DNA of 63,447 nucleotides, the filler included, from Folioceros fuciformis (lineage: Eukaryota), in assembly GCA_049999805.1 (NCBI GenBank). It is 13 parts of 13 records of this genome, joined end to end, with 100 filler letters (N's around TTAATTAATTAA, not from the genome) between each part and the next. Parts side by side here need not be neighbours in the genome. Positions count along the whole stretch, not along the records: positions 7,641 to 12,221 come from JBNGIO010006457.1; 12 more parts are not named here. The stretch is one strand, 5' to 3'. Numbering within the stretch: position 1 is the first letter of the stretch; each line of letters begins with the position of its first letter. The notes under the pieces are model-generated. The model searched no databases and was not told the DNA's origin. It worked only from the letters and a program-made list of their open reading frames with translations. Below are positions 152 to 46,899 of this stretch, piece by piece. The translations under genes were made by a program, and so were the position numbers.

Positions 152-526
152 ATGCTGAGTGTTGGCGGCATTTCTCACTTGGATGGCAGCTTTGTTCCGT
201 TGATCCTGCTGCTGGTACTGGTCGGCGTCGCTGCCTGGGAGCAGAAAAGATTTGCCGAGAGGTGTTCGGTGCTTCAGGCAGCTGGCAGGCCAATTCTTGG
301 CAGGGAGGAACAGCTGCGCAAGAAGATGAGGTTGTTGCATGCTCAGTTGCGGCGGCTCAGAGGATTGTCTCCCACTCCTGATGAGGAGGACTTCCGCAAG
401 CTGTCGCCGTGTCCGGGTCTTGAGATGATTCTTGATGCTGCTGATTGTGATCCAGAGGGTAACCTGGTCTTTAGGTATGCTCCGTTCTGGAGAAGTCCTG
501 AAGCGGAGGCGATTGCGGGATTATAA
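152..526 (+). CDS. Antisense accessory ORF in the 3' region of Copia element A; N-terminal hydrophobic segment, unknown function
   Basis: Frame open 14..526 with first ATG at 152. FVPLILLLVLVGVAAW is followed by basic helical REEQLRKKMRLLHAQLRRLRGL. Ends about 140 bp from the pol stop, on the opposite strand. Confidence 0.5.
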   Translation: MLSVGGISHLDGSFVPLILLLVLVGVAAWEQKRFAERCSVLQAAGRPILGREEQLRKKMRLLHAQLRRLRGLSPTPDEEDFRKLSPCPGLEMILDAADCDPEGNLVFRYAPFWRSPEAEAIAGL

Positions 527-665: not shown

Positions 666-2005
666 TCAGGGACTTGGTTGGATGTCGAGCCCCAGACCCT
701 TGCAGTGCGCAATGTGCCTATCTTTTGGAAGTGCCTTCGTGAGTAGGTCTGCCACGTTCTGTTCTGTGGGCACGTAGACTAGGTCAATTTCTCTGGAGGC
801 CACTGTCTGCCTGATGTAGTGCTGTTTGACAGCTATGTGCCTGGTCCGAGAGTGATGCACAGGATTCCTGGACAAGGCTATGGCTGACTGGTTGTCGCAG
901 TAGACAGTCGTGGCTCCTGGTTGAGGGAAGCCCACAGACGCCATAAACAGGCGGTTGTACACAGTTTCTTGAGCGGCTGCAGTGGCGGCCGTGTATTCTG
1001 CCTCGGTGCTAGAGAGTGCGACCACAGTCTGCTTCTTAGAGGTCCAGCTGACTGCTCCTCCAGAGAGGATTGTGCAGTTGGCGGTAATTGACTGCCTAGA
1101 GTCTTCATCACTTGCCCAATCGGAGTCAGAATAGCAGATAAGCACTGGAAATTTTCCTTGCGATTTGTACTTAAGTCCTAGATGCTGTGTTCCCTTCAGG
1201 TAGCGTAGGACTCTTTTAACTCCTGTCCAGTGTGCTGTGCCAGGGTCAGAGAGGAACCTGGAGAAGACTCGTGCAGCTGGAGCTACATCAGGCCTCGTCC
1301 ATCCACTGATCCAGATAAGGCATCCCGTTAGCATACTGTAGGGTTTCTTTGCCATTTCCAACTTCTCTGCTTCTGTTTTTGGACTCTGGTCTGTGGAGAA
1401 CTTCTCTCCCACAGCCATTGGAGTGATAGCTGGCTTGCAGTCTGTCATGATGAATCTTTCTAGCATTTGTCTCACGTAGTGTGCTTGGTGGCAGAAAATA
1501 CTACTCTTGTCTGGACTGATCACTATCTGTATGCCTAGGAAGAAAGTGAGCTGTCCCAAATCCGTCATGGAAAATTCAGCAGTGAGGATGGACTTTACTT
1601 TCTTCATGATGTCTGGAGAGTTAGCAAATATCAGTGCATCATCGACATACAGTGCCAAGATGGCAAATAATTGCCCTTGCCTCAGGATGTATACATTTGT
1701 GTCAGCATCACTCTGGGTGAATCCAGATTTTACCAGGTAAGCATGGATCTTTTGATACCAGATCCTTGGTGCTTGCTTTAAGCCGTACAGGCTCTTTCTT
1801 AGTTTGCATACCTTATGTGGTTCTGACTTGCTGACATAACCCTCAGGCTGGGTGATATACATCTCCTCGTCTATTTCACCGTGCAGAAAGGCAGTCTTGA
1901 CGTCCATCTGGTGAATATCCAGTTTGCACTCAGCAGCCAAGGCAAAGAGCATTCTTACTGAAGAGGCTCGTACGACAGGTGAGAATGTCTCATGGAAATC
2001 CAGTC
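666..2005 (-). CDS. pol: Copia pol C-terminal part: reverse transcriptase and RNase H
   Basis: Motifs HQMDVKTAFLHG, LYGLKQAPR, LYVDD, YSDSDWA, SSTEAEY, CDNQSAI, ADLLTKAL. Confidence 0.95.
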
Positions 2006-2015
2006 NNNNNNNNNN

Positions 2016-3177
2016 GATTGCTGGAGGAGGCTCCACGACCACGAGTATGAGTGGCCTCCTCGTTGAGCAGGGCGCCAATGATATCTGAGAGTGTGATTTG
2101 AGATTGTGTCCCAGCAGCTACTGCGGCTTGAGCTGTTTGTATATGTTGATTCTGAGTACTCACAAAGCTGTTGTATTTTTCTGGTAGTGACATAAGGAGG
2201 GCCACTGCAGCTTGGAGTTCATCAACAGCAGTGCCAGCCGTGATCAGGTTGGTACGTAGCATTCTGAAACGGCTGACGTGATTCTCAACAGTATCTCCAT
2301 CTCGCATTCTCAGATTGTAGAAGGCACGTGTAGCATGAACGAGTGTTGTAACACTTTTCTTTTGGTGCACTTGGCAAAGGGAATCCCATATTGCCTTCGA
2401 ACTGTCTGCCTCCCGGGCATGAGACATCATGCTTAAGTCCAGAGCAGAATGGATTACGTTTTGAGCACGAAGATCCTTGAGTTTCCAGGCATGCTGGTCT
2501 GCTCGACTTGCAGCAGTTGCACCTCCAGCAGGTGTTGCTGGCATTGGAGTTGCTCCAGTGACATACTCCCAAAGTTCGAGTTCTTGTAAGATGGTGCGTA
2601 CCCGAATCATCCATATGTCAAAGTGTTGGCCACTAAATCTATCTTTGTCTTTGAAGTCATACTTAAAGTTGTTGACTGTGACGTTTGCAGGAGGATTAGT
2701 GCCCATGGCTGTGTATTGACTAAACTGCGTCTGACTTAGATCAAACAACTGATCAAGATGAAGTGAAGAAGAGTGACTAGATGCTGGTGAATTATGTGAG
2801 GACCTTGGTGTGGAGGCAGAGCTACCAGAAGAGGGAGGCTGAGAGAAAATGACACCGGATGATAACGTGCCTAAAGTGCTTACAGAAGCTAATGCTGGAT
2901 CTGGAAGGGTGTACTCGTCTGAGTAGTCGAAGGGATTTTCTGGAAGGACAGGTGTCTGTTCAAACCCAGAAATTGGTGACTCTTCGGATACCACTTCAAA
3001 TCCAGCAGTTGGCAGCGTTTCAGGTGCTTCTTCAGATCCGACTCTTTCTGGTGACGTTCCAGATCTTGGGCTTGAAGGTGACGCTTCAGAGCTCGATCTT
3101 GGACGCGACGTTCCAGGTCTAGCAGGAATCCGGCGCGGTGGCCTCCCGGCTGGGCTTGGATCCCAAGGTTCCGACAT
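2016..3177 (-). CDS. gag: Copia Gag (UBN2-type) with long Ser/Pro-rich N-terminal extension; truncated by gap
   Basis: FDIWMIRVRTILQELELWEYVTG, FYNLRMRDGDTVENHVSRF, LLMSLPEKYNSFV; ATG at 3177. Confidence 0.88.
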
Positions 3178-3769
3178 GTTCAACCACCATCTTTCTTGAT
3201 TTCTCTTCAAGTGTCATCTGTGTCAGGAATGCGGCCACCTCAGAGATGACGTCGTTCTTGGGTCTCCCACCAGGTAGAACGCAGGGCGGCTCTGAGTGGA
3301 AATTTGGCACAGTTTGATGCAGATTGATGAACGCTGTTCTTTCTGGCTCAGTTTCCAGTTGCTGAGCGCTCTGCTGCTTAATCACTCCTTCCAGGTGGGC
3401 TACCTTCGTGAACAATGCATTCAGGTCATGAGACAGATGTTTGGCTCTGCAGTTGATGTTGTCAACTTTGTCACGGAGGCGCTCATCCTGGACTTCGCGC
3501 ATTCGCCGAAAGTCACACAATGTTGCGTGTGTGTGACGACGCTCCTCAGCGAACAGCTGGTGAAGAGTCCTCAATGCCGGCTGTGGCAGGTCAGGTGCGA
3601 CCTCAGGCGCGCTCGCAGATGGATGCAGGTGCGCACTCCTTCCGCAATTGCTGCAAGAGCTCTCAGCTTGGTAAGTGTAGGGTGGTGGACGTGCACTCCG
3701 CGGTGTGGCCTCCGCTATGCTGACTCTGTGTGGATAGAAGGTGCGCCTTGAGCGACCATTGCGAGGCAT
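3119..3769 (-). CDS. Extra sense ORF (ORF0, 216 aa) between PBS and gag
   Basis: Intact ATG-started ORF beginning MPRNGRSRR, with CSNC and heptad-like LSHDLNALFTKVAHLEGVIKQQ; overlaps the gag start. Confidence 0.6.
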   Translation of the reverse strand: MPRNGRSRRTFYPHRVSIAEATPRSARPPPYTYQAESSCSNCGRSAHLHPSASAPEVAPDLPQPALRTLHQLFAEERRHTHATLCDFRRMREVQDERLRDKVDNINCRAKHLSHDLNALFTKVAHLEGVIKQQSAQQLETEPERTAFINLHQTVPNFHSEPPCVLPGGRPKNDVISEVAAFLTQMTLEEKSRKMVVEHVGTLGSKPSREATAPDSC

Positions 3770-4207
3770 TGCTTAGGGTAGCAGTCTAGTCATTTACCTA
3801 TCTAATGCAGGCCAGTGGACTGACTCCTGTGTTCCTACACAGGCTTCTTTCCTACAGCAGATTGAGTCTTACACACATGATGAACTAGATGCAAGACAAG
3901 CTAGGAGTGTTCTTGGTTGAACATGCTGTGCAGGGCAGAAACCAAGGTGACAGGCTAGCGAATTAGAGGTGCAAGTTCAACAGGGTGGCTCAATGCTTCT
4001 TGGCGCCAGGTGCGCAAGTGCTAAGCATAGTAGTGATTGACAACCTCCGCCAGGAAGGTTTCCGCCATCACGCCAAACCGGGTGAGTGAGAGTCTGAGTG
4101 CATGAATTGCAGCACGAAAATTTTCATGTGTCAGAGTTCTAATGCAGGACTATGATTTACAGATCTCACGCCGGCTAGGAGGCGACATGGCGGAATCTGT
4201 CAACCAA

Positions 4208-4345: not shown

Positions 4346-4687
4346 CATTGAAGTCGTAAACCAAGAATCAATACATTTGATATGGAATGAATGAGAACAA
4401 CTTGGTAGTCTTCTAACTTCTTGGTTTTCCTCAAATGGTTCTAGACATATACAACATAATTCATTGTTTGCATCCTCTTCTTGCTTGTATAATATGTGTG
4501 GAATAATATGATCTAGTCTAGATATGTCGAGACAACGCTCCACCAATTTAACTATTGGTGCTCGTGGCCGAGCCCGTGCTTGTGCTTGTCTACCTTGTAC
4601 TCTTCGGAAGACTCTTTGGATGAATGATCGTACTCTTTGTCGCGTTCCAACTTGTGGTGCCGGTCCTCGTTGTTGTGAAGATGCCAT
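4346..4687 (-). CDS. RING-H2 protein, second partial copy cut by the contig end
   Basis: Same translation as 7125..7526 up to FTTSM. Confidence 0.75.
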
Positions 4688-5032
4688 GATAATTAGTGAA
4701 TCAATATGATGTATCCACAAAAATACTACAATTGTGTATATGTGGTATGACCTTGTAACAAATAAAAATGATGCGGATGTCGCCGCAAAGTTGTAATCTT
4801 AGAGTAAGATATAAGTTGATGACGGGCGCGGAAAATTCAAACCCGCCTATTGATATTCTTGCGTATTTATTTTATTCAGATGCAGAAATTATTATTGTAT
4901 TAAAATGCTTTCACTTCTTAGAGTGAAATAATGATGGCAATAATAGCTTTATAGAGAGGCCGCACTAGGAATCCACAACTTTAATAACGATGAAATGATA
5001 ATGGCAACAAAGGCTTCATGCAAAGGCAACGT

Positions 5033-5160
5033 TAGAGCACAAGATATAACAAAGCACCACCGTAGAAGGCAACGCTCTATAGAGCACAAGATGTAACAAA
5101 GCACTACCGTAGAAGGCAATGCTCTATAGAGCACAAGATATAACAAAGCACCACCGTAGT
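5033..5160. repeat. About 47-bp tandem repeat, about 3 copies
   Basis: tagagcacaagatataacaaagcaccaccgtagaaggcaa recurs. Confidence 0.8.
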
Positions 5161-7124
5161 AAGCAAGAGAGACGGAGAGAGGGAGAGAGGGCGAGAGAGA
5201 GCGAGAGCGCCAAGACGTATAGAAATGTTGTGTGCCACAAGTGTGTGAGAGGCCCTTTATATTGCTTGAGAAAACTAAACCCTAATTTCATAGAGAGCAT
5301 ATATATTTGCGATTAGTTATTGAACCCACTCATCCTAGCCCTAGACTCTACTTATTGAATGGGTGACGTAAATAAATAGGTTATGACACTAAATATTTAT
5401 GATGCTAATTTCTTGGTCTTCTTACCCATGTGCCATCCTGGGGATGTAATATGTCATAACATTGAACTACGGTGCTAACTATTTTTGGTCCCCATACACG
5501 TATGCCATCGTACGGATCATATCCTAAAATGAAAGCTACGTATAGAATATGCTTGGAAGAACCTAGATGTTGATGCTTAGAACTCCACGCATGCTGCACC
5601 GTTGCGTACGTCTTGCAATATTTAATGGTGCTGCATGCATGATCCATTACCAAATTCATATTCCTTGGCAACGGGAAATAATGCAAAGTTTCCAATGCGG
5701 GTCATGGCCGATCCCATGTCTACTCCCGGACCGATTGATGTAAGACTTGCCAAGTTCAAAAATCTTGGTAGACTAAGTTCACCTTGCTTGCAAGGGAAGG
5801 AGATGAATTTTTTGTTTTTGGCACCTTGAGGTTGCGAGAATGTAATGGCCAAGAACGTGATTGCGAAGATGAATATGTGCGCTTTCAATGAGGCGAGGGA
5901 AGAGCGACGAATTGAAGGCGAGGCTCAAATGTTTGGAAGATTTGCACAAGTCCACAAACTATGCACGGGTGTGGCGGGAAAGCTCAAGGTTTTGACTTCT
6001 AACCTAGACGTTGGGTTCTTCCTATCCAAATTTCTCGCCTTGAACGGTGTGTTTGTTGAAAACCCTTGGTATAGCTTGTTGCGGAGCACTCATTATGGTT
6101 GCAGCCACCACTCACTCGCCACAACCTTTCTATAGCAATCTCGGCGCAACACTTTGTTGGCCATCATCCAAAGCCCTCACGACGAGCTTGCTTCCAATTC
6201 CCACGCTTGGCACTAATGTCCATCGGTCAACTTGTTAGCTATTATTCACGAAAAGCGTTTGATGCTTCTAGAGTCCTTCAAAGTGTCACGGACATAGGTC
6301 ACGCCATTCCTCTTGGAAAATGATTTGTGTAATGGTGAAATATTAGAGTTCTATGAAATATTAGAGTTCTATACACGTCTACGTCTCTCTCTCTCTCTCT
6401 CTCTCTTTTTTGAAAAAAAATAAAAATCAATAGTTTTATGTATAATAAAAGGTTATATCATACATTAATATTTAGTTAAGATCATTAAATATATATATAA
6501 TGAATATGAATACTTATTTCTACCATATTAGTACATCAAAAATTATGAAAGAAATCCATGTGCACGATGGAATAAAAGTGAACACCCCCGCAGAGGAACC
6601 ACCGAAAACCATTTAGGCGAGAACTAAAACAGAACCCGTATGTTCCTCATGCGCGCACGTGCTTCCACAACCCTAGCTAGCTTCCATATTTTTCATTCCT
6701 AGTAGGTGCTCGTGCGTCTTAGGGGCTTCCGCTTCCATGGCTTTTCCTTTTTTGGTCTTCTTGAGTAGTCCAGCTGCCAAAATTCAACTCTTGCATAAGA
6801 ATTTCACAAGTGTAAAATCAATTCAAAGATGTTTTAAACTCTGCAAGCACATACAAGAAAGAACAAGCTTGCTCCAAAGTGATGGCAATACGCACCCAAG
6901 CGTTGCACCTTACACCCACAAAGACCTTGGTCGAAGCTCAATGGCAATAATCTTGAAGTGATTGACAACCTGCATTGTCGAGTTTATGTACAACGCGTTA
7001 TGAGGCAGTGTTCTTCTCTAGTTGCAATAAAGCATGCATTTAGCACTAGATTCTCTCTTACGCAATTGTCAGCCATGAATTATCTTTTGTTTGTAGAACA
7101 CATAGATGATCTATTACGTCTTAG

Positions 7125-7526
7125 TTATGCTTTGTACACAAATGCCCTTTCTATATCGAGAGCACTTCTATCAAGAGGACAAGTCATTGAAGTCGTAAAC
7201 CAAGAATCAATACATTTGATATGGAATGAATGAGAACAACTTGGTAGTCTTCTAACTTCTTGGTTTTCCTCAAATGGTTCTAGACATATACAACATAATT
7301 CATTGTTTGCATCCTCTTCTTGCTTGTATAATATGTGTGGAATAATATGATCTAGTCTAGATATGTCGAGACAACGCTCCACCAATTTAACTATTGGTGC
7401 TCGTGGCCGAGCCCGTGCTTGTGCTTGTCTACCTTGTACTCTTCGGAAGACTCTTTGGATGAATGATCGTACTCTTTGTCGCGTTCCAACTTGTGGTGCC
7501 GGTCCTCGTTGTTGTGAAGATGCCAT
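7125..7526 (-). CDS. Small intronless RING-H2 finger protein (putative E3 ubiquitin ligase), 133 aa
   Basis: CCICLEPFEENQEVRRLPSCSHSFHIKCIDSWFTTSMTCPLDR matches RING-H2 spacing. Confidence 0.85.
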   Translation of the reverse strand: MASSQQRGPAPQVGTRQRVRSFIQRVFRRVQGRQAQARARPRAPIVKLVERCLDISRLDHIIPHILYKQEEDANNELCCICLEPFEENQEVRRLPSCSHSFHIKCIDSWFTTSMTCPLDRSALDIERAFVYKA

Positions 7527-7640
7527 GATAATTAGTGAATNNNNNNNNNNNNNNNNNNNNNNNNNNNNNNNNNNNNNNNNNNNNTTAATTAATTAANNNN
7601 NNNNNNNNNNNNNNNNNNNNNNNNNNNNNNNNNNNNNNNN

Positions 7641-10600
7641 ACATTTGCATTTTCAAGGGTCTCCTTGATAATGACTTGTATTGCCTTGACATGCTACCTG
7701 TGAAGACAGTCACAGTTCACAGCACTGGGTTAGCTAACTTGGACACCAAATAGCTGGCTCTTTTATGGCACGCGAGACTCGGACATCCCAACAAGCAGAA
7801 GTTGGTAGACATGTCCGTGAAACAATGTTACAGGGAACCACTTCCCCGTTGCTTCAAGGAACTTCCATCCTGCGAAGCGTGCATAATTGCCAAGCAAAAG
7901 GAGCACCCTTTTCCTTCCACGCCAGCATACAGAGCTACCTCCGTCCTGGACCTTGTCCATGCTGATATTTCTGGAAGAATACAGGTGTCCTCCTTAGGTG
8001 GCTCCAACTATTACCTCACCTTAACGGATGACTACAGCCGCTACAGTTGGACATTTCCTATGCGGAGGAAGAGCGATGTCCTCGAGCTATTCAAAGAGTG
8101 GCTACCTACAGTGCAACGACAAACAGGTTCTTTGGTCAAGTACCTACGTACAGACAACGGAACTGAATTTGTAAATGCTGCATTTGATGAGTACCTTATT
8201 GCGGCAGGCATCCAGAGACAGCTTACTGTCCCGTACACACCCCAGCAAAATGGGGTGGCCGAAAGGAAGAACCAGACTCTTCTGGCCATGACCAGGAGCA
8301 TGTTGCTCTGGTCCGGGCTTCCTCAAATGTACTGGGCTGAAGCAATCTCTGCTGCAACTTATATCCTGAACAGAATCATTACGAGCTCTGTTCCTGATCA
8401 GACACCCTATGAGGTTCTCTATAAAAGGAAGCCGAGCCTGTTGCACCTGCGTGTATTTGGCTCTCGAGCATATGCGCTTATTCCTTCGGCGAAACGTCGT
8501 AAGCTAGACCCGCGAGCACAAGCCCTAATTTTCGTAGGGTACAGTGAGCAGTCTAAGGCCTATCGACTATATGATCCAACTACCCGGCAGATGTCCCTGT
8601 CACGTAGCGTGACATTCATTGAGCCCAAACATCCTCTGCATACCTGTGCTCCAGAGTCAGAGGGAGCTGTTCCTCCGCCTGATGAGACAGAGGGAGCCCC
8701 TGCCATTACTGCATCTGATGGGCAGGTCACTTATCATCTCTATCCCCAAGATGGTGCCGATGACTTGCCAGATACAGTTCCGCCGAACAATGTATTACCT
8801 GCAGATCCATCACTTGCTGATGCTGTAGATATGGGCCCTGTACCTGCGATTCCAGATCCAGCCCATCTTGAGGAACCTGTCTCGCCTGCCCATTCCCAGG
8901 CTTCTGTGGCTTTTTCGGATGATTTCACCATTAATGAGCAAAGTTCAGTCTCAACAGATGCTGAACATCCGCTGGAGGACCTGGCTCCACCGGTCCCAGT
9001 GGTTCCTGAAGAGGTGGCCCCTCGACGCTCTGGACGTCACCGGCCAACCCCTGAGCAATGGGCTGAACCGAGGTATCAGTCCATCGACTTCAGAAATAGA
9101 GCAGCTGCTGCAACGACGGTACATACTGCCCCCTCCGACATCCCTGATGAGCCACATACTTTGTCTGAGGCATATAATGGACCTGATAGCCAGCACTGGC
9201 ATGCTGCAGTAGAAGACGAGTATCAGTCATTAATCAAAAATAAGACCTGGACTCTCGTCGATCTGCCGCCTGGCCGCAAGCCCATTTCTTGCAAATGGGT
9301 CTTCAAACACAAGTTGAATGCTCAAGGCAAGATTGTTCGTTACAAGGCCAGATTAGTGGCTCGAGGCTTTACTCAGGTGGAGGGCCTGGATTATCAGGAG
9401 ACATTTTCTCCTGTAGTCCGAGCTCAATCCATACGCATGCTTTTGGCTTTGGTTGCACAATTCGACTTGGAGCTGTGGCAGATGGATGTCTGCACAGCAT
9501 ATCTTTATGGCTCCTTGGATGAAGAATTGTACATGCAACAGCCAGAAGGTTATGTCAATAAGCAGCATCCTCTTCAGGTTCTGAAATTACTTAAATGCAT
9601 TTACGGACTTAAACAGTCTGGCAGGGTCTGGTACTTTACGATCCATGTTTACCTGCTGGGACTGTCCTTTGTCCAAAGTGCTGCAGACACTAACGTCTAC
9701 AGGTTGGTCAGAGGTTCTTCTTTTGTTGTGATTGCGCTGTACGTAGATGATGTCATCCTGGTTACAAACAGCAAACCCCTGTTAGCCGAGGTCAAACAGA
9801 TGCTTAGTGACAAATTCGAAATGAAGGATATTGGTGATCTGAAGTTTTGTCTGGGCATTCAAATCCTTCGAGTTCGTGAGGAGGGCCTTCTGATTATCCA
9901 TCAGCACAAATATATTCGTGAGATCCTGCACAAATTTAAAATGGATCAGGCTCGTCCAGCAGTCACCCCATCAGCTGTAGGCGTTAAGTTGATAGTTGCC
10001 CAGTGTCCCACCTCTACTGAAGCTAAACAGGACATGGCAGATGTGCCCTACCGGCATGCAATCGGTAGTATTCTCTTTGTGGCTAACTGGACTCGCCCTG
10101 ATATCCAGTACGCCGTCAGCATAGCTTCCCAATTTATGGAAAACCCTGGACGTCCACACTGGGTAGCTGTGAAGCGTATCTTCCGATATCTGCAGGGAAC
10201 CCACAGGTACGGGTTATTTTACAAGCGTAGTGACACAGGCAACTTTCAAATTTCTAGCTTTACAGACGCTGACAGGGGTTCGTACAGTGATGGCCGCCGC
10301 AGCCTGTCTACTTACTTTTTTCTGTTGGCAAATGCCTCTGTGAGCTGGAGTTGTAAGAAACAAACTTCGATCGCTCTATCTTCGACAGAAGCGGAATATA
10401 AATCCCTTACAGAGGCTTCCAAAGAGGCAGAGTGGGCACGCCAATTCTTGTATGACCTTGGCCACCCTCAGCCAGAGCCTACCCTCCTCTTATGTGATAA
10501 CACCGGTGCTCTTGCCCTTGTAGCCAATCCACGGTACCACGCTCGTACCAAACATATTGAAATACAACACCATTACATCCGAGACGCAGCTGCACGGGGA

Positions 10601-10744
10601 GTGGTTAAAGTTGGTTACGTTGATACCGATCTCAACACTGCTGACATCTTTACCAAGCCCCTACCCAAGTTCAAGCACTACGCTCACATGACGGGACTCG
10701 GCCTGCAAGACTATGCTGCTTATTTTGCACCAGGCACCCTATGA
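7641..10744 (+). CDS. pol: Copia pol: GAG-pre-integrase, integrase, RT, RNase H (one in-frame TAG at 7751)
   Basis: LWHARLGH, LVHADISG, RTDNGTEF, TPQQNGVAERKN, YKARLVARGF, LYVDD, SSTEAEY. Confidence 0.95.
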
Positions 10745-10925
10745 GTCAGAGAACTTATCTGGATGGGGGGGGGGGGGAACCTGAGTTCTCTGACCAACAG
10801 ATAAATTAGTTGCAAGCCTCCCTTCCTCCAGACAAGGGTTCTCTGCGCACACAGTTTTTTCAGTCAGTCTTGCCCGTCTTTACAGTCATGCAGCTCTGCA
10901 GGTGGATGAAGCTTATCTGACCTGA

Positions 10926-11270
10926 TCAAATCACTCTGCAGCAGCGCACACAGACATCTTCGGCGCGCCTGACTCTGGCTATAGCGACCTCTGCCGACCA
11001 CCTGCCTTCCCACCCAATGAATTTGATCAGCTGCTCCACCCTTAACGGCGTCCAGCTGAGATACCCTCGATTCCTCTCCTCAATCGGCGGAGCTGCTCTC
11101 TTTGCCTGTGTTTTCTTCTCCTTTGGTTGCCGTTCACAGCTGTGGGTATCCTTCCCATATCTGTGCCCGCTACGTGTCGTCATGCCCCACAGGTGAATCA
11201 CTATGGTAAGGGCAGCTGCCGCAATGAGAAGAGCTGCTAAAGCAAGGGTTTCCGTCGTGGATTTGACCAT
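10926..11270 (-). CDS. Antisense accessory ORF (114 aa) between pol stop and PPT; N-terminal TM/signal anchor
   Basis: ATG-started; LALAALLIAAAALTIVIHLW followed by a basic region. Confidence 0.55.
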   Translation of the reverse strand: MVKSTTETLALAALLIAAAALTIVIHLWGMTTRSGHRYGKDTHSCERQPKEKKTQAKRAAPPIEERNRGYLSWTPLRVEQLIKFIGWEGRWSAEVAIARVRRAEDVCVRCCRVI

Positions 11271-11392
11271 CTTTGGAGTCTGGAGCTCGACAGTACTGGG
11301 CGATGGCGTTTCCGCTTCCTCACAGAACGGAACGTGGTGCTGAGCTTTCCTCTGACGCCGTAATAAGTTGACGCCATTAGGTTAAGAGGGAG

Positions 11393-11566
11393 TGTCGAGG
11401 GGGGGTAACCCTATACGACCCAACTTAAGTAAATAATAGGGTTATGCATAAAATAATACATAAAGACAATTTTGTTTATTATTCATAATCAATTACATTT
11501 GGTAGTTTGCACGCACAAGGGCTCTGCGCTCCGCGGCTCTCACCTTTTGCGACTCCCAAATTGACA
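11393..11566 (+). repeat. 3' LTR of element C (174 bp), preceded by PPT AAGAGGGAG
   Basis: TGTC...GACA inverted termini; the right end falls exactly where the neighbouring RNase H breaks after CDNQSAIALS. Confidence 0.85.
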
Positions 11567-12221
11567 CGAGAAAGAGCAATTGCTGATTGATTGTCGCAGA
11601 ACAGTCGAGTTGGACTAGCTGGGAGTTTGCCTAAACCTTTGAGGAAAGTGCGAATCCATAAGATCTCCCGAGGTGCTTGTGCCATAGCACCATACTCTGC
11701 TTCGGTGTTGGAAAGGCATATGGTGGGCATATTCTTGCTTGACCATGACACCACAAAACTACCGAGGAAACAGCAATAGGCTGCAACACTTTTGCGAATA
11801 TCGGGGTCTCTTGCCCAATCTGCATCACAGAACGCAAAAAGCCCAAGTCCATTTGGCTGCCTAGTATACCTGAGACCTCTGATAGGTGTGCCCTTCAAGT
11901 AACGAAATATTCTCTTCACGGCTATCCAGTGTTCCATTCCTGGGTTCTCAAGGAATTGGCTAACATTACTGACAACCCTACTAATATCTAATCTTGTCCA
12001 CCCAGCTAGATAAAGCAAGCAACCCACAGCTGGCCTATATGGCTTCTTTGCCATTTTTGCCTTCTCAGGCAAAGTCTAGGCGATTGCTCCTTGGACAGCT
12101 TTTCTCCCACTGCCATTGGAGTTGCCACTAGCTTTGCATCTTCCATTTGAAAACGTTGTAGCAGTTGTTTGACAAAGTGTTCTTGGTGGATGTTGATTGT
12201 ATGGTCTGCATGATTAAAATG
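11567..12221 (-). pseudogene. Copia RT/RNase H fragment interrupted by element C
   Basis: PYRPAVGCLLYLA, KRIFRYLKGT, CDADWA, NTEAEY, CDNQSAI. Confidence 0.9.
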
Positions 12222-13214
12222 NNNNNNNNNNNNNNNNNNNNNNNNNNNNNNNNNNNNNNNNNNNNTTAATTAATTAANNNNNNNNNNNNNNNNNNNNNNN
12301 NNNNNNNNNNNNNNNNNNNNNGTGATGTTTATGGTGAAGCATACTGGTAACAGCTGATCGCGATGGTCCCGCAGCTGATTCAGATGATGGGCATCAAACC
12401 TTAGCACAACGCAGTTCGTTCCTGTAACATGTACGACTCCTCTACAATGTGCATAGCAATCTGGCTGCACAAGCTCCAGCTGTGCATAACGAAACGGGCC
12501 TTGCTTCCAATTCAACGAAAGGGGCAAGCTGGCCCCGTGGACGGTGGGGTGTACTCTCGTTGCTTGATGCCCTCACAAGGCGAAGGACCTGTCCCCGTTG
12601 GAGTCAGACCGACGGTGATTAAAGAGGTGAATGCTGGTGGTCTGTGACAGGTGCGTGTCTTTCTCGCTCTCTCAGGGCATCTCATTTTCCCGTTGGCCAC
12701 TGGCCTCTGGCCGTATCGGGAGGAAGCCATGAAGGAACCTGTTGATACCCTGTGACCCAATGCCAGCCCTGGATTGATGATGTCATCGACGGACGGGAAG
12801 TGGTACAGGCTCCGTTAATTCGCTGATAAAAGACGAAAGCAACGGCGGCGCCCACATTGCAGGGTCCCGGAGCTGGGTCCCAGTCCGTCAGGGGCTTTCA
12901 CACAGTTTCTTGCCGGCCGTTGCGGGACCGCGACCGCAGAGGAGCGAGCCGCGTGGGGCCTTGGGCCCGGGGCCATGGCGTCCATCTGTTCCGGCCCGGA
13001 CGCCTCCCGGAGCGGAGGACCGGGCTGTACACTCCCCTTGCGCCTCGGGTTTTCGCCTTGGTTCCAGCTTCCTCCTTCTCTCGCACCGGGCGAGCCATGG
13101 CGGATGAGGTGAGGTTGTGGAGGAGGCCAGAGAGGCGGCGGAGCATGCGGATCAGGAGCGGAAGTGGAAGAGGAAGGTGGGCGAGGAGGATGAGGAGGTG
13201 GAGGCCCACAGCCC

Positions 13215-30290: not shown

Positions 30291-33200
30291 ATGTCCACAG
30301 GATCTGTCCTGTCTATAGATGCATTGAGTAGCTTATTTCAAGCACTCAGTCTCGGACAGATCATATCTGCTGCAATCCAGAATCCAACTCCATCATTAGT
30401 CATGGCTATAGTTGTAAAACCCACATATACGTCAGAACTGAAGGAGAAAGAGTTGGTGAATCCGAATGAAGTCCATCTTGTTGGCACGACGTGTGTGGAA
30501 TATAGTTGATGGGACAACTCCCAAACCAGATTCCAACGCAAACCCAGCACCATCTGCAGAACAGATTGCTGAATGGGATGAATTGAACAGTATTGCAATT
30601 GCCTTATTAATAGGAGGATTGCACACTGACCTCATTTCTCAGGTCGAGTTCCTTGACAAGGCTTCTGACATCTGGACACAGCTGGAGAAAACTTACAAGG
30701 CTACGAACGTACTAACTCTTGTTGGAGTGAAGTACGAATTCTATGCCTTGAGGATGAAAGAGGGAGACAAGGTGGCAGCCTTTACAAGTAAATTTCGTCA
30801 CCTTAGGGCCCAGATGACCTCTCTATCAAGCACAAAGATGGGAGAAGTCGATGTTGTGGCTGAGCTCCTTGCGAGACTCCCTCCATCGTATCAATCTTTC
30901 GTCACTAGTCAAAATGGACCATTGAGAGCTGCTGCTACTGGAAGTGCTGTAAACATCACTCTAGAGGATGTTATAGGCGCCTTGTACCAGGAAGAGCAGA
31001 GCCGAATGTTTTCTTCAAGTACTCCAAAGAGTAAGACGGAGAAGGCATTAGTAACAGCTCAAAGGCCATTCAAGGGAAAAGGCAAAGCTGCAGGTAAACC
31101 TAGCCAATTTTCAAATTCAGCTGGCTCACCTAAGCGTCCAGGCAACTGCAACTGGTGTGGTATAGCTGGACACTGGGCCAGGGAATGTAAGAAGAAGAAG
31201 GCAGGAGAACCTAAGCGGGCTCCTAAAAATTCCAACAGTTCTGCAACTGTTGCGATCAAGGAGAAGACATCAGGTGACACCAAACCAGTGGTGAAGATAC
31301 TTACAGTCTGCCTTACCCGTTCCATATGTGATGAAGATGGTTGGTACTTGGATTCTGGCGCAACCTCCCACATCTGCAGAAATAAAGAGCAATTTTACTT
31401 GCTTATGACAAACAGATTAGCTGAAAGAGTGCTTTTGGGAGATGAACACAATCAGTCTAGTCTCCAAATCAATGGCAGTGGAACATGCAAGTTCACACTC
31501 AACGATGGATCACTTCTTACCCTGGATGACGTACTCTATGTGCCGTCCATGGCAAAGAATTTGGTTTCTCTTAGCAAACTGATGCAACTTCGAGTGTATG
31601 ACATGAAAGCCAGTGAGGACACTTGTCTCTTCTACAAGAGGTCAGAACCATCCATGCTGGCATTTAAAGGTACCTTAGATCATGATCTGTATAGACTCGA
31701 TATTTGCACACTTCGTCATCAAGCTGGTCTTGTCTCTGCGAAGTCCCAACGTCTTGCTGTCCTTTGGCATGCACGGCTTGGTCATGTTAATAAGAGAAAG
31801 ATAGTAGATATGTCGTTACAAGCATGTCACCTTGAACCATTGCCTCAGGTTTTCAAAGACTTACCTTCTTGTGAAGCTTGCATTGTTGCCAAACAGAAAG
31901 CTCATCCCTTCCCAATTTCAGCCACCTACAGGGCATCTGTTGTCCTCGAGTTAGTGCATGCAGACATTTCCGGTAAAATACATGTCCCCTCTCTGGGTGG
32001 CTCCATTTATTACCTCCACATAACTGACGATTATTCTCGCTACACGTGGACTTTCCCGATGCACTTGAAGAGTGATACCTTTGAACTCTTCCGTGATTGG
32101 TTGTGGACTGCTGAAAAATAGACAGGTCAGTCTGTTAAGTCTCTTCGGACTGACAATGGAACAGAATTTGTCAATGACACTTTTGACAACTTCCTGCATG
32201 AGAGGGGGATTCAACGTCAGCATACTATCCATTACACTCCACAGCAAAATGGCGTAGTTGAAAGGAAAAATCAGACATTGCTGGCCATGACCCGGAGTAT
32301 GTTATTGTGGGCTAAATTACCTCAAGCCTATTGGTCTGAAGCCATTGTTGCATCTACATATATCTTGAACAGGCTTTTTACAAGTTCCGTTCCATCTCAG
32401 ACCCCCTATGAGGCTTTTTGGAAACGGAAACCTAGTTTGCTGCACTTGCGTGTGTTTGGTTCACGTGCTTTTGCTCTCATCCCAAAGGAGAAGTGAAAGA
32501 AGCTGGATCCGAGAGCCCAAGCACTTGTTTTCGTCGGCTACAGTGAACAATCCAAAGCATATAAACTCTATGACCCTGCACATCAGCAAGTTGTGTTAGC
32601 CCGATCTGTCACTTTTCTTGAAATTGATAGACCCCTCGCTACTGGACAAACAACAGCAGAGGGAGTGGACATACCACAATCAACTGATGACACTATTGAT
32701 TTCCCTGGTGATGATACACATGACGAGGGAGATGTTCAAACAGTCCAACCTGCTGGTCCAGCACCTCCTCCTGTTCAACCTGTCCTGCTACATCCCCCAC
32801 GTGTACAGCAACAGCCAGCACATGCTGCCAATCCTGATCCACAACCAGCTCTTGCTCCAGATTATTGTGAGGACATTCATGTACCTAATCCAGATGTTGA
32901 CCAAGCAGAGGGAGACAATGATGCACAAATGCTCATGGACAATATACCTGAGGAACATGAACAACCACTTGCTGTTCAAGACCAAGAACATGATCCTCCT
33001 TTACGACGTTCCACCAGACATCGTCCTCCTCCAGAACAGTGGAAAGAGCCACGGTATGAATCAATCGATTTTAGGACAGCATATGCAGACATCTGCAATT
33101 CAGCTTCAAGCACCATACACCTGGAGCCTAAATCCTTAACAGAGGCATATTCAGGACCTGAACGTGATAAGTGGAAGTTTGCAATTGATGATGAATACAA

Positions 33201-34710
33201 TTCTTTAGTTAAGAACAAAACATGGAAGTTGGTTGATCTCCCACCTGGCAAAAAACCTATCTCCTGCAAGTGGATATTTAAGCTAAAGTTGAATGCAAAG
33301 GGCAAAATTGCAAGGTATAAGGCAAGGTTGGTCGCAAGAGGATTCACGCAGATTGAAGGGTTAGATTATCAGGAAACGTTCTCACCAGTTGTGAGAGCAC
33401 AATCCATCAGGATGATCTTAGCTCTAGCAGCAGAATTTGACTTGGACCTACATCAAATGGACGTATGTACAGCTTTCTTATATGGAGCACTTGATGAGGA
33501 TTTGTACATGGTGCAACCTGAAGGGTATGTAGACCCGAAACATCCTAAACAGGTCCTAAAGCTGCTAAAGACCATCTATGGCCTGAAGCAAAGTGGCAGA
33601 GTTTGGTATCTTACAATACACGAGTACCTCATCAGCAACTCTTTTATACAAAGCTCTGCAGACGGTACTGTATACAAGCTCACAAAAAGAGATGAATATG
33701 TTATCATGGCATTGTATGTTGATGATGTCATACTTGCTACAAACAGTCAGCCTCTTCTAGCACAAGTAAAGGAAATGTTGAGTAGTAGGTTTGAGATGAA
33801 GGATATAGGCGAGTTAAGGTTCTGCCTGGGTACACAGCTTTTACGGGTCAGACCTGAAAAACTCATCATTATTCACCAGTATCAGTACGTTCAAGAGCTT
33901 CTGCAAAAGTTCAAGCTTGAAGATGCTAGACCTTCTTCCACCCCTTATGCTTTAGGGACTAAGCTGACTAGCCAACAATGCCCACAAGGTGCAGACGAGA
34001 TGAGGGAGATGGCCCAGGTCCCCTACAGGCATGCAATTGGCAGTTTAATTTTTATTGCCAATTGGACAAGACCGGATATACAGTATTCTGTTAGCACTCT
34101 ATCTCAATTTCTGGAAAATCCAGGACGCGTGCATTGGACAGCAGCTAAGCGTGTTATCCGCTACCTTAAGGGAACACAATCCTATGGGCTTGCATACAGG
34201 AGTAGTGGACAGCAGAAACTTACGTTAAAGGGCTTCACAGATGCTGATTGGGCATCGGATACAGAATCACGTCGCAGCCTTTCTACATATTGCTTTCTTC
34301 TTTCGTCAGCTGTCACGAGCTGGAGCTGCAAGAAGCAAATATCCGTTGCCCTCTCATCAACAGAAGCGGAGTATAAAAGTTTAACAGAAGCCTCTAAGGA
34401 GGCAGAGTGGATACGAACCTTCCTGGCAGATCTAGGACAAAAGCAAGAGCTGTCAACTCCACTCTTGTGTGACAACATGTCAGCCCTCGAGCTTGTTGCG
34501 AATCCTAAGTTTCATGCGCGCACGAAACACATTGAAATACAACATCATTATGTTAGAGATGTGGTTCATCGTGGAATTGTGAAGATCAGCTATGTTCCAA
34601 CAGACGAAAATACGGCTGACATCCTCACTAAAGGTCTGTCCAAACACTTGCACTATCAGCACATGGTAGGCCTTGGGCTTATTGATTTTACAGCCTATGA
34701 ACAAATATGA
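30291..34710 (+). pseudogene. Copia gag-pol (frameshift near 30455, TAG at 32119, TGA at 32494)
   Basis: CNWCGIAGHWAREC, WYLDSGAT, LWHARLGH, RTDNGTEF, LYVDD, FTDADWA, ADILTKGL. Confidence 0.94.
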
Positions 34711-34939: not shown

Positions 34940-35365
34940 TCACGTCCTTAATCTTGTCAAGCAGCTTGATAGTTTCTTCCAGTTTTTTTTTATTAGGGTT
35001 TGCTTCCCTTCCTCCCCAATCGCATATGCAGGGAGGTTAGGTGTCTCCCCCTTTTTCACCTTTCCACAAATTACAGAGAGGCTCAACTCCACATGGTAGG
35101 CACCCAAGTGGACTCTCTGCCCCCAACTTGAATTGTAGTCCCATTCCCAGCCGCGTGCAGCAGATTGTCGTCTGTCCACCAACTCATGCAGATTGTCCTC
35201 CACTTCAGCTGGCAGCTTGGGCATGTTGTCTCTTCTCCGTGGTTTTCCAGCTCCCATGTACACCCTGTCGCTTCGCGTCTTCATGATGGCACACTGAAGT
35301 ATGTGAGAGCACAGAAAAATCAGTAGCTCAACTCCAGCAATCAGAGATGCGAGATGACTGGCCAT
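34940..35365 (-). CDS. Antisense accessory ORF (about 141 aa) between pol stop and PPT; hydrophobic N-terminus
   Basis: ATG at 35365; LASLIAGVELLIFLCSHILQCAIM followed by basic KPRRR. Confidence 0.5.
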   Translation of the reverse strand: MASHLASLIAGVELLIFLCSHILQCAIMKTRSDRVYMGAGKPRRRDNMPKLPAEVEDNLHELVDRRQSAARGWEWDYNSSWGQRVHLGAYHVELSLSVICGKVKKGETPNLPAYAIGEEGKQTLIKKNWKKLSSCLTRLRT

Positions 35366-35603
35366 AGCCCTCACGTTGTGGGTTTATCCCTCCCGGGGCA
35401 GTGATGGTACAGCGACAGTTGGGCACCACTCGAGCACAGAGTGAGGAACGTGATCATGCAACTATGAGTCTAGATTGCACAGTCGTTCGGGAGTAGTTCC
35501 TCATGGAATCTCGTATAGATTCTTTCCAAAGGGTTACTCGCGTCATGCCGGGATTTTTTTAGGTATATTACTATCTAGCTAAGCTCCTTAGCTTAAGAGG
35601 GAG

Positions 35604-35812
35604 TGTTAGCGGGTTAAGCTGTTATTCGCTTAGCCTAGTTATTATTTTCGTACCTTTTCATTTAGGGTTTATTTGATATTTAATGAACACACGTGAGACC
35701 TTTTTTGTATTCCATTCATTTTATTCATTCTTTTGAATATACAAGTGATATATATGTCTAAGCCTTCAGGCTCTAGTCAAACAGTCCAATGCTTATACAT
35801 CTATAATTTACA
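35604..35812 (+). repeat. 3' LTR of element H (about 209 bp)
   Basis: Follows PPT AAGAGGGAG; TGT...ACA ends; the right end truncates the neighbouring ORF. Confidence 0.75.
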
Positions 35813-43482: not shown

Positions 43483-46400
43483 TTATGGTGAAAACAACTT
43501 AGACATCTCAATCTCAGCGACGGATATGGTTACCGTAGATCTACTGTGCAGAGACCACTCGGAGCTTTGTTGCACGTAAGCACGGACATGACCATCACCA
43601 CGCTGTGCCTGCAGATCATCTCGAACGTCATCCCATGCCTCCGAGTCCAAGTGAAGCCAGATGGTGTGCAACATATTCCGGACCTCCCTCATTTCGGGAC
43701 GATCTCGGGATTTGAGGGCCAAGCACTGGACAGCCAATGCGCCCACACTTTCTACGGACGCCTTCCCATTGGCTAAACTATAGGTGTCCGCCAACACGGG
43801 GTCGATCAGCCCTTGCCAGTTCCCCCTGTCCATGGCTGAAAATGCCAGGTTCGCCAAGCTGGCCTCATCATACCCTCTCTGAAAGTCTACAGCCGGTTGA
43901 GCTGAGATGAGTTCCAGCAGCACAACGCCGAAGCTGTAGACGTCGCTCTTGGGAGTGAGCTGGCAGCTTACATAGTACTCAGGGTCGATATAGCCCATGG
44001 TGCCTTGAACTGCGACTGTGGACACATGAGTGGCTGCCTTGTTAGGAACCAGCTTGGAAATTCCGAAATCTGCCACCTTCGCATTGAGCTCATCGTCAAG
44101 GAGAATATTTGAAGACTTGACGTCTCGGTGGAAGATGGGAGGGTCGGCCGCCGAATGCAGATACGCTAGCGCGTCGGATGTCTGAAGCGCTATAAGGAGG
44201 CGTTGTCTCCAGGTGAGCGGGGAAAATGTTTCACTTTTGCCCTGGAGATGTTCAAGCAGCGTGCCGTTGGGGACAAACTCAAAGACAAGGAGCGCGATTT
44301 TGTTCTCCATGGAACAGCCCAGCAGCTTCACCAAGTGTCTGTGGTTTACTCCAGACAAAATCCTGACCTCATTGAGAAACTGCTGCTTGTACTCGGGGGA
44401 GCCGTCCCGCTTGCCCTTCTTGATTGCCACTTGCGTGCCATCGTCGAGTTTGCCCGTGTAGACGATGCCGAAGCCGCCCACTCCGATCTGGGCCGACTGT
44501 GAAAAGTTGGAGGTGGCTTTGCTGAGCTTCCGAAGGGGCATCACCGTCACAGTTTCCCTCTCCAGCAGCGTGGCGATCAAGTCGGCATCCTGCTGGTGCC
44601 TTTTGGAGTACACCCGCCATGTCCAGCTCAGGAGCAAACAACTACCCATGGAGACCAATACGGCGGGAACTAGTACCGCCACTAACAGCCGCACATTGAT
44701 CCGACCCGCGGTATCCTGATCAGAAGAAGGATGTGGTCCAGAAGCGGGAACTGGTCCGCCAAAGTGGAAATCATTGTCAGCAAAGGAGCTTGCCTTGAAG
44801 ACAGTTTCATTCAGGTCCTCTGGAATAACGACAAACAGATTGTTTCCAGACAGATTGATGTATTCCAAGTGAGGTAAACCATAGAAAACAGCATAGGGTA
44901 TGTATCCCTCCAAAAGGTTATGGCTGAGATCCAACACTCGTAGACTGGAGGGTAAGAACCATGGAATCAATGCGTATAGCTGGTTGTTGGATGCGTTGAA
45001 ATGCTCCAAGTTCGGTGACAACCCTTGCAGTCCCCACAAATGGTTGTTGCTGATATCCAGTACGGTGAGACTGTCTAGAAACAGGTCAGGAATGTGCCCA
45101 GAAAGTCTGTTGTTGGATACGTTGAGAAAGGTAAGGTTGGGCATGCACATCTTGAAAAACGACGCATCCGGCAGTGTTCCGGTCAAGTTGCAAGACGCAA
45201 GATCCAAGACCTGAAGAGAGTCCAGACCCATTGGACTGGAACAGTTGAAAGTATCGTTTAGCTGTTGGCCCATGAGATCGGTGCCCGCTAACCGAAGTTC
45301 CATCAAAGGTGAGCTCCCGTCACTGAACGCTTCCAGCAGAGTGAGCAAAGGATCGGGGAACACCGTTGAAGGTGTCATGTGGAAGCGGTTGTGGCTCAAG
45401 TCCAAAACTGTCAAGTCCATCAAACGCGCCAGGTTCCAAGAGTTGAGGATCTCTGTGAGGTCCCCAGTGAGGCTGTTGCCTTGCACGCGGATACTTTCAA
45501 AATCAAAGCCGGTGGAACCCATTGCCGTCTGGGCGAGACAGGCGATGAAGTCACCAGACAAGTTGTTGTTATGTAGCCACAGCTGTCTCGGACGAAGATA
45601 GGAGAAGAAAGAGCAAGGAATCGGGCCAACAAGCTCATTGTCGCTCAGATCAAGGTGAACTTGACGCTGATCATAAACCGGTAAATCTCCCGGAGCATTG
45701 GGTATGTTGCCAACTAGAGAATTTCGTGAAAGGTTCACATACTGTGCTCCATAAAGCAAAGCTGCAGGAATGCTGCCATTCAGATCATTTCCAGACAGAT
45801 CCACCCATCCGTATGCACCTGAGGGAAAAATATGAATATCCTGGGGGACGGGGCCAGACAAGTTGTTGTTCGACAGGTCCAGGTGTGTCACTTTCTCTAG
45901 TCCGGACGGAATGGGGCCTTGCAGACTGTTCCATGAAAGATCCAGCACATCAAGAAACTTCAGGCTTATGTTACCTGGTAGTCGTCCCACTAATTGGTTC
46001 CTGGAAAGGTTCACCTGCTTCAGAGAGGACATCTGGAAGAAGGAAGCCGTGACGTCCGTGAGATTGTTTTCGGCTGCGCCCAGGTATTCCAGATTGGGTG
46101 CAGTTGGCACATCCCCGCTCAGCTGGTTCCTGCCGACAGACAGTTGGGTGAGGCGTGTGAGCCCCTCCAAACTGGGGATGGTGCCCTTGAGGGAATTTCC
46201 AGACAGGTCCAGGCTCTCGAGTTTGGTTAGGTTGCGCACTTCTTCCGGGATGACAGCTGAGCCTTCCAGTTCCAGTTCATTGTTTGCAAGTGAGAGCGCC
46301 ATCAGCTCTCGCAGCCCGAGGAAGCTGTGGATCAAATACCGACTCCATGCCGTCCGCTTCGCAATCAGGTACTGGAGGCGGGGAAGCGCGGGGTGCGAGC

Positions 46401-46899
46401 TGTTCGAATTCTCCGGCCAGACACTTATCTGAGATCCCGAAAGATCCAGCCACTTAAGCCCCGTCAAGAACTGGAAGTCATCACTGGAGCGTAAAGGTTG
46501 GACGTCGAACGACAGGTCCAGCTCCTGAAGGCCTCCAAGATAACGCAACTGGGTTAGATTGAATGGCAGGTTGTCAATCGTCGTCTGAGAGGAGGCCGAA
46601 AGGTCGAGCCTACGCACAACGGACTGGGGGGTGCAGAATACCCGTAACCAGTCACACGGCGTATCCTCGCTCCCGTTCCAGCTTGCGAAGCCCAAGCTCT
46701 GGTCCAGACTACCTCTATTGTCTTCCAGAAACTTCAACAGCCCTTGCCCATCGGGAGAGAGTTGAGCACGAACGTTGCTTCCCACCACTGTGATCACGAG
46801 CCACAAGCATATCCACAAACCTGCACCACCATGATGGCCATGCACAAGTCGGCCTACCCTAACCTGTGACTCAAACTTCAAGGCCCTCTTCATATTCAT
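43483..46899 (-). CDS. Intronless LRR receptor-like Ser/Thr kinase (RD type)
   Basis: Hydrophobic leader, LRRNT SWNGSEDTPCDW, many LxxLDLSxNxLxGxIP repeats, TM LLVAVLVPAVLVSMG, kinase IGVGGFG / HRDVKSSNILLD / DFG / GYIDPEY; probable ATG at 46899 or 46893. Confidence 0.95.
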   Translation of the reverse strand: MNMKRALKFESQVRVGRLVHGHHGGAGLWICLWLVITVVGSNVRAQLSPDGQGLLKFLEDNRGSLDQSLGFASWNGSEDTPCDWLRVFCTPQSVVRRLDLSASSQTTIDNLPFNLTQLRYLGGLQELDLSFDVQPLRSSDDFQFLTGLKWLDLSGSQISVWPENSNSSHPALPRLQYLIAKRTAWSRYLIHSFLGLRELMALSLANNELELEGSAVIPEEVRNLTKLESLDLSGNSLKGTIPSLEGLTRLTQLSVGRNQLSGDVPTAPNLEYLGAAENNLTDVTASFFQMSSLKQVNLSRNQLVGRLPGNISLKFLDVLDLSWNSLQGPIPSGLEKVTHLDLSNNNLSGPVPQDIHIFPSGAYGWVDLSGNDLNGSIPAALLYGAQYVNLSRNSLVGNIPNAPGDLPVYDQRQVHLDLSDNELVGPIPCSFFSYLRPRQLWLHNNNLSGDFIACLAQTAMGSTGFDFESIRVQGNSLTGDLTEILNSWNLARLMDLTVLDLSHNRFHMTPSTVFPDPLLTLLEAFSDGSSPLMELRLAGTDLMGQQLNDTFNCSSPMGLDSLQVLDLASCNLTGTLPDASFFKMCMPNLTFLNVSNNRLSGHIPDLFLDSLTVLDISNNHLWGLQGLSPNLEHFNASNNQLYALIPWFLPSSLRVLDLSHNLLEGYIPYAVFYGLPHLEYINLSGNNLFVVIPEDLNETVFKASSFADNDFHFGGPVPASGPHPSSDQDTAGRINVRLLVAVLVPAVLVSMGSCLLLSWTWRVYSKRHQQDADLIATLLERETVTVMPLRKLSKATSNFSQSAQIGVGGFGIVYTGKLDDGTQVAIKKGKRDGSPEYKQQFLNEVRILSGVNHRHLVKLLGCSMENKIALLVFEFVPNGTLLEHLQGKSETFSPLTWRQRLLIALQTSDALAYLHSAADPPIFHRDVKSSNILLDDELNAKVADFGISKLVPNKAATHVSTVAVQGTMGYIDPEYYVSCQLTPKSDVYSFGVVLLELISAQPAVDFQRGYDEASLANLAFSAMDRGNWQGLIDPVLADTYSLANGKASVESVGALAVQCLALKSRDRPEMREVRNMLHTIWLHLDSEAWDDVRDDLQAQRGDGHVRAYVQQSSEWSLHSRSTVTISVAEIEMSKLFSP

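Follow-up and report, generated by a model that had tools for sequence, protein, structure and literature searches.

The window analysed here, a stretch of DNA of 63,447 nt, is composed of 13 contigs chained by linkers of 44 N, TTAATTAATTAA and a further 44 N (positions 4246-4345, 7541-7640, 12222-12321 and nine others). The contigs are unplaced, so features that lie on two of them have no physical linkage. The contig at 7641-12221 (4581 bases) holds the 3' two-thirds of a Ty1/copia retrotransposon, called element C. The 5' part of this element is missing, cut by the contig start at 7641, and neither a 5' LTR nor a primer-binding site is visible. Its pol gene (integrase, SH3-like domain, RT and RNase H) occupies 7754..10744 on the plus strand, with a frame that is open from 7754, a first ATG at 7811 and a stop codon ending at 10744. 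Within the ORF 7811..10744 (plus), Pfam places rve at residues 48-144 and RVT_2 at residues 477-721 (E 3.8e-74). The integrase thus lies before RVT_2, which is the domain order of Ty1/copia elements and identifies C as one of them.

Downstream of pol, an internal 3' region of 639 nt (10745..11383, plus) extends from the pol stop to a polypurine tract, AAGAGGGAG, at 11384..11392 on the plus strand. No tandem repeats were found in 10745..11383, low complexity likewise does not account for the layout, and the same region has no match in Rfam. The polypurine tract abuts the LTR, with TGT following directly and the TG expected of a Ty1/copia LTR at 11393. The 14-mer TTAAGAGGGAGTGT of element C is repeated exactly at 35593-35606, behind a second element of the window, D, which supports the reading of a polypurine tract followed by an LTR start in C. 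As a minimal TG...CA unit, the 3' LTR spans 11393..11499 (plus, 107 nt); its true end is uncertain and could lie as far as about 11570, where homology to an interrupted older copia starts. The LTR is AT-rich and carries TATA-like strings on both strands. A fragment of the older copia, from the RNase H region and 43% identical to pol of C, lies beside the 3' LTR at 11482..12153 on the minus strand. Since the 3' LTR abuts this fragment, element C was probably inserted into an older copia copy on the opposite strand.

The internal 3' region contains, antisense to gag-pol and between the pol stop at 10744 and the LTR at 11393, an ORF that is the subject of this report. This ORF, termed aORF-C, lies at 10926..11270 on the minus strand, starts with ATG in the context AAAGATGG and encodes 114 aa followed by a stop. 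The surrounding frame is open from stop to stop over 151 codons (10929 to 11381), and 122 nt lie between the ATG at 11270 and the 3' LTR. A hydrophobic segment, LALAALLIAAAALTIVIHLW, is encoded by codons 9-28 (11187..11246, minus) and is a predicted membrane anchor; its Kyte-Doolittle 19-residue mean (KD19), taken from residue 9, is 2.59. AlphaFold2, run on the single sequence, gave a mean pLDDT of 56 and predicted that residues 5-33 form a helix, in which block means of pLDDT were 68-81; values above 70 were reached only in this N-terminal helix. The antisense leader of C contains one out-of-frame upstream ATG (11375..11377, minus), which opens a 46-aa uORF at 11237..11377. Between the pol stop and the stop of aORF-C lies the 13-mer GGTGGATGAAGCT (10901..10913, plus), which recurs exactly in element D at 34858-34870 and may be a cis element.

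A preliminary description, made from the sequence, had reported this ORF on the minus strand with its ATG and 114 aa, and all of these details were confirmed. The pol stop at 10744, the polypurine tract at 11384, the distance of about 120 bp to the 3' LTR and the hydrophobic stretch near the N-terminus were likewise recovered. It had also placed the ORF wholly inside the element. The ORF is indeed flanked by the pol stop on one side and the polypurine tract on the other, and the statement applies to an element whose 5' part is lost at the contig start.

Three other copia elements of the window, called A, B and D, were found to be related to C. In a tree of RT-RNase H sequences with 11 rows, from which 8 of 15 candidate loci had been excluded for in-frame stops, seven metagenome copia sequences fall outside a single clade of A, B, C and D, whose forks (C, D) and (A, B) each have support of 100/99. 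A, C and D, three of the four clade elements with a visible 3' region, each have an ATG ORF on the antisense strand that lies after the pol stop and before the 3' end. The arrangement had earlier been called recurring, and to this extent it is.

The gag-pol of element D (30460..34710, plus) is 62% identical to pol of C and has in-frame stops at 32119-32121 and 32494-32496; no 5' LTR of D was found. Its polypurine tract and LTR start lie at 35593..35606 (plus), within the 14-mer shared with C. The antisense ORF of D, aORF-D, at 34940..35365 on the minus strand, encodes 141 aa with hydrophobic residues 5-26 followed by a basic stretch. A spacer of 238 nt separates its ATG from the LTR, and the antisense leader contains three upstream ATGs by hand reading, which count if transcription starts in the LTR. 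The start contexts, also read by hand, are AAAG ATG G in C and GGCT ATG G in D, both with a purine at -3 and G at +4. Outside short motifs, namely one after the pol stop, the 13-mer and the polypurine tract, the 3' regions of C and D cannot be aligned.

Element A lies on the minus strand, with gag and RT-RNase H ORFs at 666..3772 that are 45-47% identical to pol of C. Protease and integrase are missing between gag and RT, where there is an N gap (2006-2015). Given this loss in A and the pol stops in D, these copies are not active. The antisense ORF of A, aORF-A, at 152..526 (plus), encodes 124 aa from the first visible ATG; its frame is already open at base 2, and the true start may lie beyond the window. 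Element B, the sister of A, is exactly one complete copia filling the contig 22730-29322, with identical 163-nt LTRs at both ends. Its post-pol region is only 422 nt long and holds no such antisense ORF.

The predicted proteins of A, C and D share an N-terminal hydrophobic segment. Its KD19 is 2.59 in C, 2.14 in D and 2.31 in A, and the net charge of the 15 residues before and after it is 0/+2 in C, 0/+3 in D and -1/+1 in A.

Several further features were observed on other contigs of the window. The contig 39815-50468 has an identical stretch of 3940 bases (100%) at both ends, with a unit of 6714 nt, which could represent a tandem duplication or an assembly overlap. The same contig encodes an intronless LRR receptor kinase of 1138 aa (43483..46899, minus). 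Opposite this gene, at 43041-43502, lies a 153-aa ORF that overlaps the gene end by 20 nt; it has neither a hydrophobic start nor a Pfam match and is probably a chance ORF. An ACR-type ACT domain is also encoded in the window, and together with the receptor kinase it indicates a land plant as the source. The contig 4346-7540 is AT-rich (about 40% GC) and its first and last 356 bases are the same, with a unit of 2839 nt, so that it may represent a circle, a tandem unit or an artefact of assembly; none of its ORFs has a Pfam match. Short tandem arrays are located at 55961-56123, where a 41-nt unit occurs three times (84-88% alike), and at 38436-38629, where a 97-nt unit occurs twice (97% alike).

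The length of the antisense ORFs was compared with chance by dinucleotide-preserving shuffling. For aORF-C, the region 10745-11383 was shuffled and antisense ATG ORFs at least as long were counted. Its length was reached in 70 of 2000 shuffles, that of aORF-D in 2 of 2000 and that of aORF-A in 36 of 2000. Long frames are also common in the window, which contains 112 stop-to-stop frames of at least 100 codons and 44 ATG ORFs of at least 100 aa. The length of aORF-C by itself is therefore weak evidence beyond chance.

The hydrophobic N-terminus is far rarer. An N-terminal KD19 of at least 2.0 was found in 3 of the 158 ATG ORFs of at least 60 aa in the window, and these are the antisense ORFs of A, C and D; the next-best value in the window is 1.57. 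The same three stand alone at stricter length cuts (3 of 87 ORFs of at least 80 aa, 3 of 44 of at least 100 aa). Among shuffled antisense ORFs of at least 60 aa, such a segment arose in 2 of 1908 for C, 0 of 1779 for D and 24 of 1976 for A. These counts are to be read with the knowledge that the features of the ORFs had been noticed before they were tested statistically. Hydrophobic codons require T at the second position. The antisense strand of the 3' regions is T-poor, the sense strand having 20-22% A in C and D, and the composition thus disfavours a hydrophobic segment. The hydrophobic N-terminus and its recurrence clearly exceed chance. Together these data make a good statistical case for the arrangement being genuine and selected for in this clade, at any rate in the recent history of these families.

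The three ORFs have no significant similarity to one another. BLASTP of aORF-C against aORF-D gave E 8.9, and the Smith-Waterman scores were reached by 1384 of 2000 shuffles for C-D, 1503 of 2000 for C-A and 177 of 2000 for D-A. The ORFs may either have diverged beyond recognition or have arisen more than once. With pol itself only 62% identical between C and D, unrecognisable divergence is plausible for a weakly constrained small protein.

Database searches likewise gave no relatives. In Pfam, at E up to 0.1, no family was found for aORF-C or aORF-D, and Transposase_28 (PF04195) is absent from all three antisense ORFs. For aORF-A, the only match was to Nup54 (E 0.07), below the curated cut-off. 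Among 5.8 billion clustered proteins there were no relatives of aORF-C or aORF-D, and a word-indexed search with aORF-C gave 0 matches among 66 candidates. The sole HMMER match of aORF-C among 1.84 billion representatives, a fibronectin-III protein with five fn3 stretches, was judged spurious because it is repeat-inflated, aORF-C having been matched four times over to an inter-domain linker and LSWTPL motif. The search of solved structures gave no more than an F-BAR protein at E 1.6. The ESM Atlas, queried like the language model with the 113 aa of aORF-C that follow the start codon, returned nothing usable for it, and scores of at most 0.81 for aORF-A. Language-model recognition scores were low (1449 for C, 1781 for A). 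Codon-usage log-odds of the antisense ORFs were 0.05-0.07 per codon, against about 0 in controls and 0.11-0.21 in real genes; neither this measure nor GC by codon position was discriminating.

Collections of assembled contigs were also searched for related loci. None was found in viral_contigs. Of 260 relatives in metagenome_contigs, 80 loci were retained, with pol identities of 31-50% throughout, and none of the 80 contains a relative of the three antisense ORFs or of their 3' regions. The pol C-terminus together with at least 500 nt of downstream sequence is available in 36 of the 80. An antisense ATG ORF of at least 100 aa is present in 2 of these 36, and one that also has a hydrophobic start in 0 of 36, which indicates that the layout is not general to copia.

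Other copies of element C were followed in three DNA runs of the same sample, in the form of assembled contigs and summary tables. Inside aORF-C, at least three base differences that are not bisulfite-like occur among the differences listed (1399 further). Translated by hand, they are synonymous at 11019 (F84) and give I85V at 11018 and T22I at 11206. Of three length changes inside the ORF, two preserve the frame (-163+28 and -146+149). In the first, from 11057 to 11221, 163 letters are replaced by 28, with a net loss of 45 codons and, by hand reading, no stop in the insert; in the second, from 11055 to 11202, 146 letters are replaced by 149 in frame. The third, an 8-nt skip from 10945 to 10954, breaks the frame near the C-terminus. 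The -163+28 variant replaces codons 18-71, so that half of the hydrophobic segment is gone, and it has the highest depth at this place (107.6 in run X1). Given this depth, the commonest subfamily of C may be without the membrane anchor. At 11376, all aligned contigs have G in place of A (332 of 332 depth in X1), and the upstream ATG of C is thus specific to the copy in the window. Its absence from the other copies removes one objection to translation.

For aORF-A, a second copy is present in a public assembly (P0003, 100 aa), with 78 of 87 residues identical and both gaps one codon long. P0003 has a differing end and, as called, begins downstream of the hydrophobic part. The copy data lean mildly towards conservation of the frame and are far from a proper test of it. 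A further run, X4, which we guess to be RNA (49 million letters), had no match anywhere on the contig 7641-12221, pol included, and is uninformative either way. On this contig, C>T (252) and G>A (409) differences are in large excess in the DNA run X3, a pattern typical of a bisulfite-type library.

ORFs of antisense orientation in the interval from pol to the 3' LTR are established for plant LTR retrotransposons, according to the available portions of PMC7264820. Examples of this class, named aORF-3R or eORF-3'R in the same portions, are maize Grande gene23, rice RIRE2, Silene Retand and Phaseolus PvRetro13 (PMC7264820). Transcription of Grande gene23 is driven by a promoter immediately upstream of it, which provides a precedent for an antisense start in the present elements (PMC7264820, in part). 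The products of known antisense ORFs are suspected to be nuclear or DNA-binding, and their function is unassigned in the accessible text of two sources (PMC7264820, PMC11963269). In Retand, the survey excerpted from PMC11963269 covered antisense ORFs longer than 600 bp and found Transposase_28 in 57 of 104. The present ORFs resemble the aORF-3R class in position, orientation, lack of database similarity and family-specific divergence. They differ from it in being much smaller, in lying in Ty1/copia elements, in having neither Transposase_28 nor another domain and in being membrane-anchored by prediction. Grande, RIRE2 and Retand are Ty3/gypsy elements.

Small ORFs of this kind could have been overlooked on account of their size. 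The REXdb survey counted extra ORFs of at least 250 codons and, in the portions available, reports for copia mainly the sense ORF of SIRE (PMC6317226). With 114 codons, or 151 from stop to stop, aORF-C is below this threshold, and ORFs of 114-141 codons would escape such a survey as it is described there. A limited search of full-text literature found no description of a copia antisense transmembrane ORF of this kind, which is not proof of absence. Env-like ORFs between pol and the 3' LTR are found in SIRE (copia) and in Athila and Bagy2 (gypsy); they are very divergent and some have transmembrane segments, as given in parts of PMC7264820 and PMC6317226. They are in sense orientation and much longer, whereas the present ORFs are antisense and small.

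The nearest functional analogy is the antisense protein ASP of HIV-1, a hydrophobic, membrane-associated product of minus-strand transcripts initiated in the 3' LTR, with no known homologues in the available portions of PMC3182985 and PMC12568219. ASP and the present ORFs are alike in strand, 3' location and hydrophobicity, and this is an analogy, not a family relationship. ASP belongs to an animal retrovirus and overlaps env by overprinting, whereas the present ORFs lie in otherwise non-coding sequence of a plant copia. HIV-1 Vpu is a small accessory protein with an N-terminal membrane anchor, a cytosolic C-terminal domain and known targets, and is encoded on the sense strand. The predicted architecture of the present ORFs is shared with Vpu, from which they differ in strand; the comparison is one of architecture.

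With regard to the product, the preliminary description had proposed a small membrane or secreted protein. The membrane part of this proposal is favoured by the architecture, that is, by a hydrophobic stretch 19-23 residues long, a modelled helix (residues 5-33) and the asymmetry of charge, and secretion appears less likely. The roles in movement, fusion or anti-silencing that it also named are speculative. In aORF-C, a hydrophobic segment modelled as one N-terminal helix and a charge asymmetry were found, as in signal-anchors. At 19-23 residues, the stretch is longer than is usual in signal peptides that are cleaved, and positive charges lie behind it, which argues for an uncleaved anchor. 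By the positive-inside rule, the positively charged flank stays cytosolic. The C-terminal 85-115 residues would, by this rule, face the cytosol; the pI of this domain is 10.0 in C and 9.5 in D.

Putting these observations together, we consider the antisense ORF to be, with somewhat better than even probability, a real accessory gene of a plant Ty1/copia clade, which encodes a fast-evolving, N-terminally anchored protein with a cytosolic basic tail. Its expression could proceed as follows. An antisense transcript would begin either within the 3' LTR, which is rich in AT, or within the 120-240 nt that separate the LTR from the ATG, and the first ATG of the transcript, in good context, would be translated into a protein of about 115-140 aa. 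The helix of 19-23 residues would then enter an endomembrane and remain as a signal-anchor that is not cleaved, leaving the basic C-terminal domain on the cytosolic side and the short N-terminus on the other. Our best guess for its role is a fast-evolving accessory factor that tethers RNA or particles of the element to membranes, or that engages host defence.

Three other explanations were weighed against an accessory gene. The ORFs could have arisen by chance, from a T-poor antisense strand that yields long open frames without selection, with the hydrophobic starts as an after-the-fact coincidence. Such an origin would fit the abundance of long frames in the window, the 70 in 2000 shuffles that match aORF-C in length, the lack of similarity among the three ORFs or to other proteins, and the low protein-likeness scores. 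However, shuffles that keep the composition seldom reach the observed lengths, hydrophobic segments are nearly absent from them, and none of the 155 other window ORFs of at least 60 aa has such a segment. Moreover, the same T-poor strand that is to supply the open frames disfavours the second-position T of hydrophobic codons. We therefore regard chance as quite unlikely. Regulation of the element by a non-coding RNA from the antisense strand, which might form dsRNA or siRNAs with the genomic RNA, the ORF being incidental or only weakly translated, is unlikely in our judgement, if a little less so. The available portions of PMC7264820 report that several retroelements have antisense promoters and produce non-coding antisense RNAs, and they consider a dsRNA role for the antisense ORFs of plants. 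The upstream ATGs, three in the leader of D and one in that of the window copy of C, would also suit a non-coding transcript if it started in the LTR. However, the upstream ATG of C is missing from all other copies aligned, and a non-coding RNA leaves unexplained why frames of 114-141 codons with anchor-like starts occur in three elements that have diverged past alignment.

The ORFs could also be relics with no present role, either host gene fragments captured in reverse orientation by transduction or a small ancestral insertion. Extra ORFs have been proposed to originate, among other ways, by capture (PMC7264820, in part), and the extra ORFs of plant elements form many unrelated groups in the accessible part of PMC6317226. 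That D, with two pol stops, and A, without protease and integrase, are inactive copies would also be consistent with relics. However, no host or other protein resembles the three, save the second copy of aORF-A, and a frame without a role is expected to be lost between elements as diverged as C and D, with their pol identity of 62%. This origin is considered highly improbable.

An accessory gene thus remains the preferred reading, and a more far-reaching form of it can be put forward as a speculative possibility. The clade may keep, through selection on architecture and not on sequence, a gene on the antisense strand whose product, a small membrane protein anchored at its N-terminus, is functionally like the accessory membrane proteins of complex retroviruses. 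At endomembranes, this protein would aid the replication of the element itself or blunt host silencing, and it would have been overlooked by surveys that count much longer ORFs.

Antisense extra ORFs are widespread in plant LTR retrotransposons, and none has a demonstrated function. As a compact protein of about 115 aa, the predicted product offers a localisation and a topology that are directly testable. Annotation cut-offs of 200-250 codons conceal a candidate class of this size. If true, a small membrane-anchored type in Ty1/copia would widen the current picture of nuclear or DNA-binding products, and it would suggest that retrovirus-like accessory membrane proteins arose also in plant retroelements.
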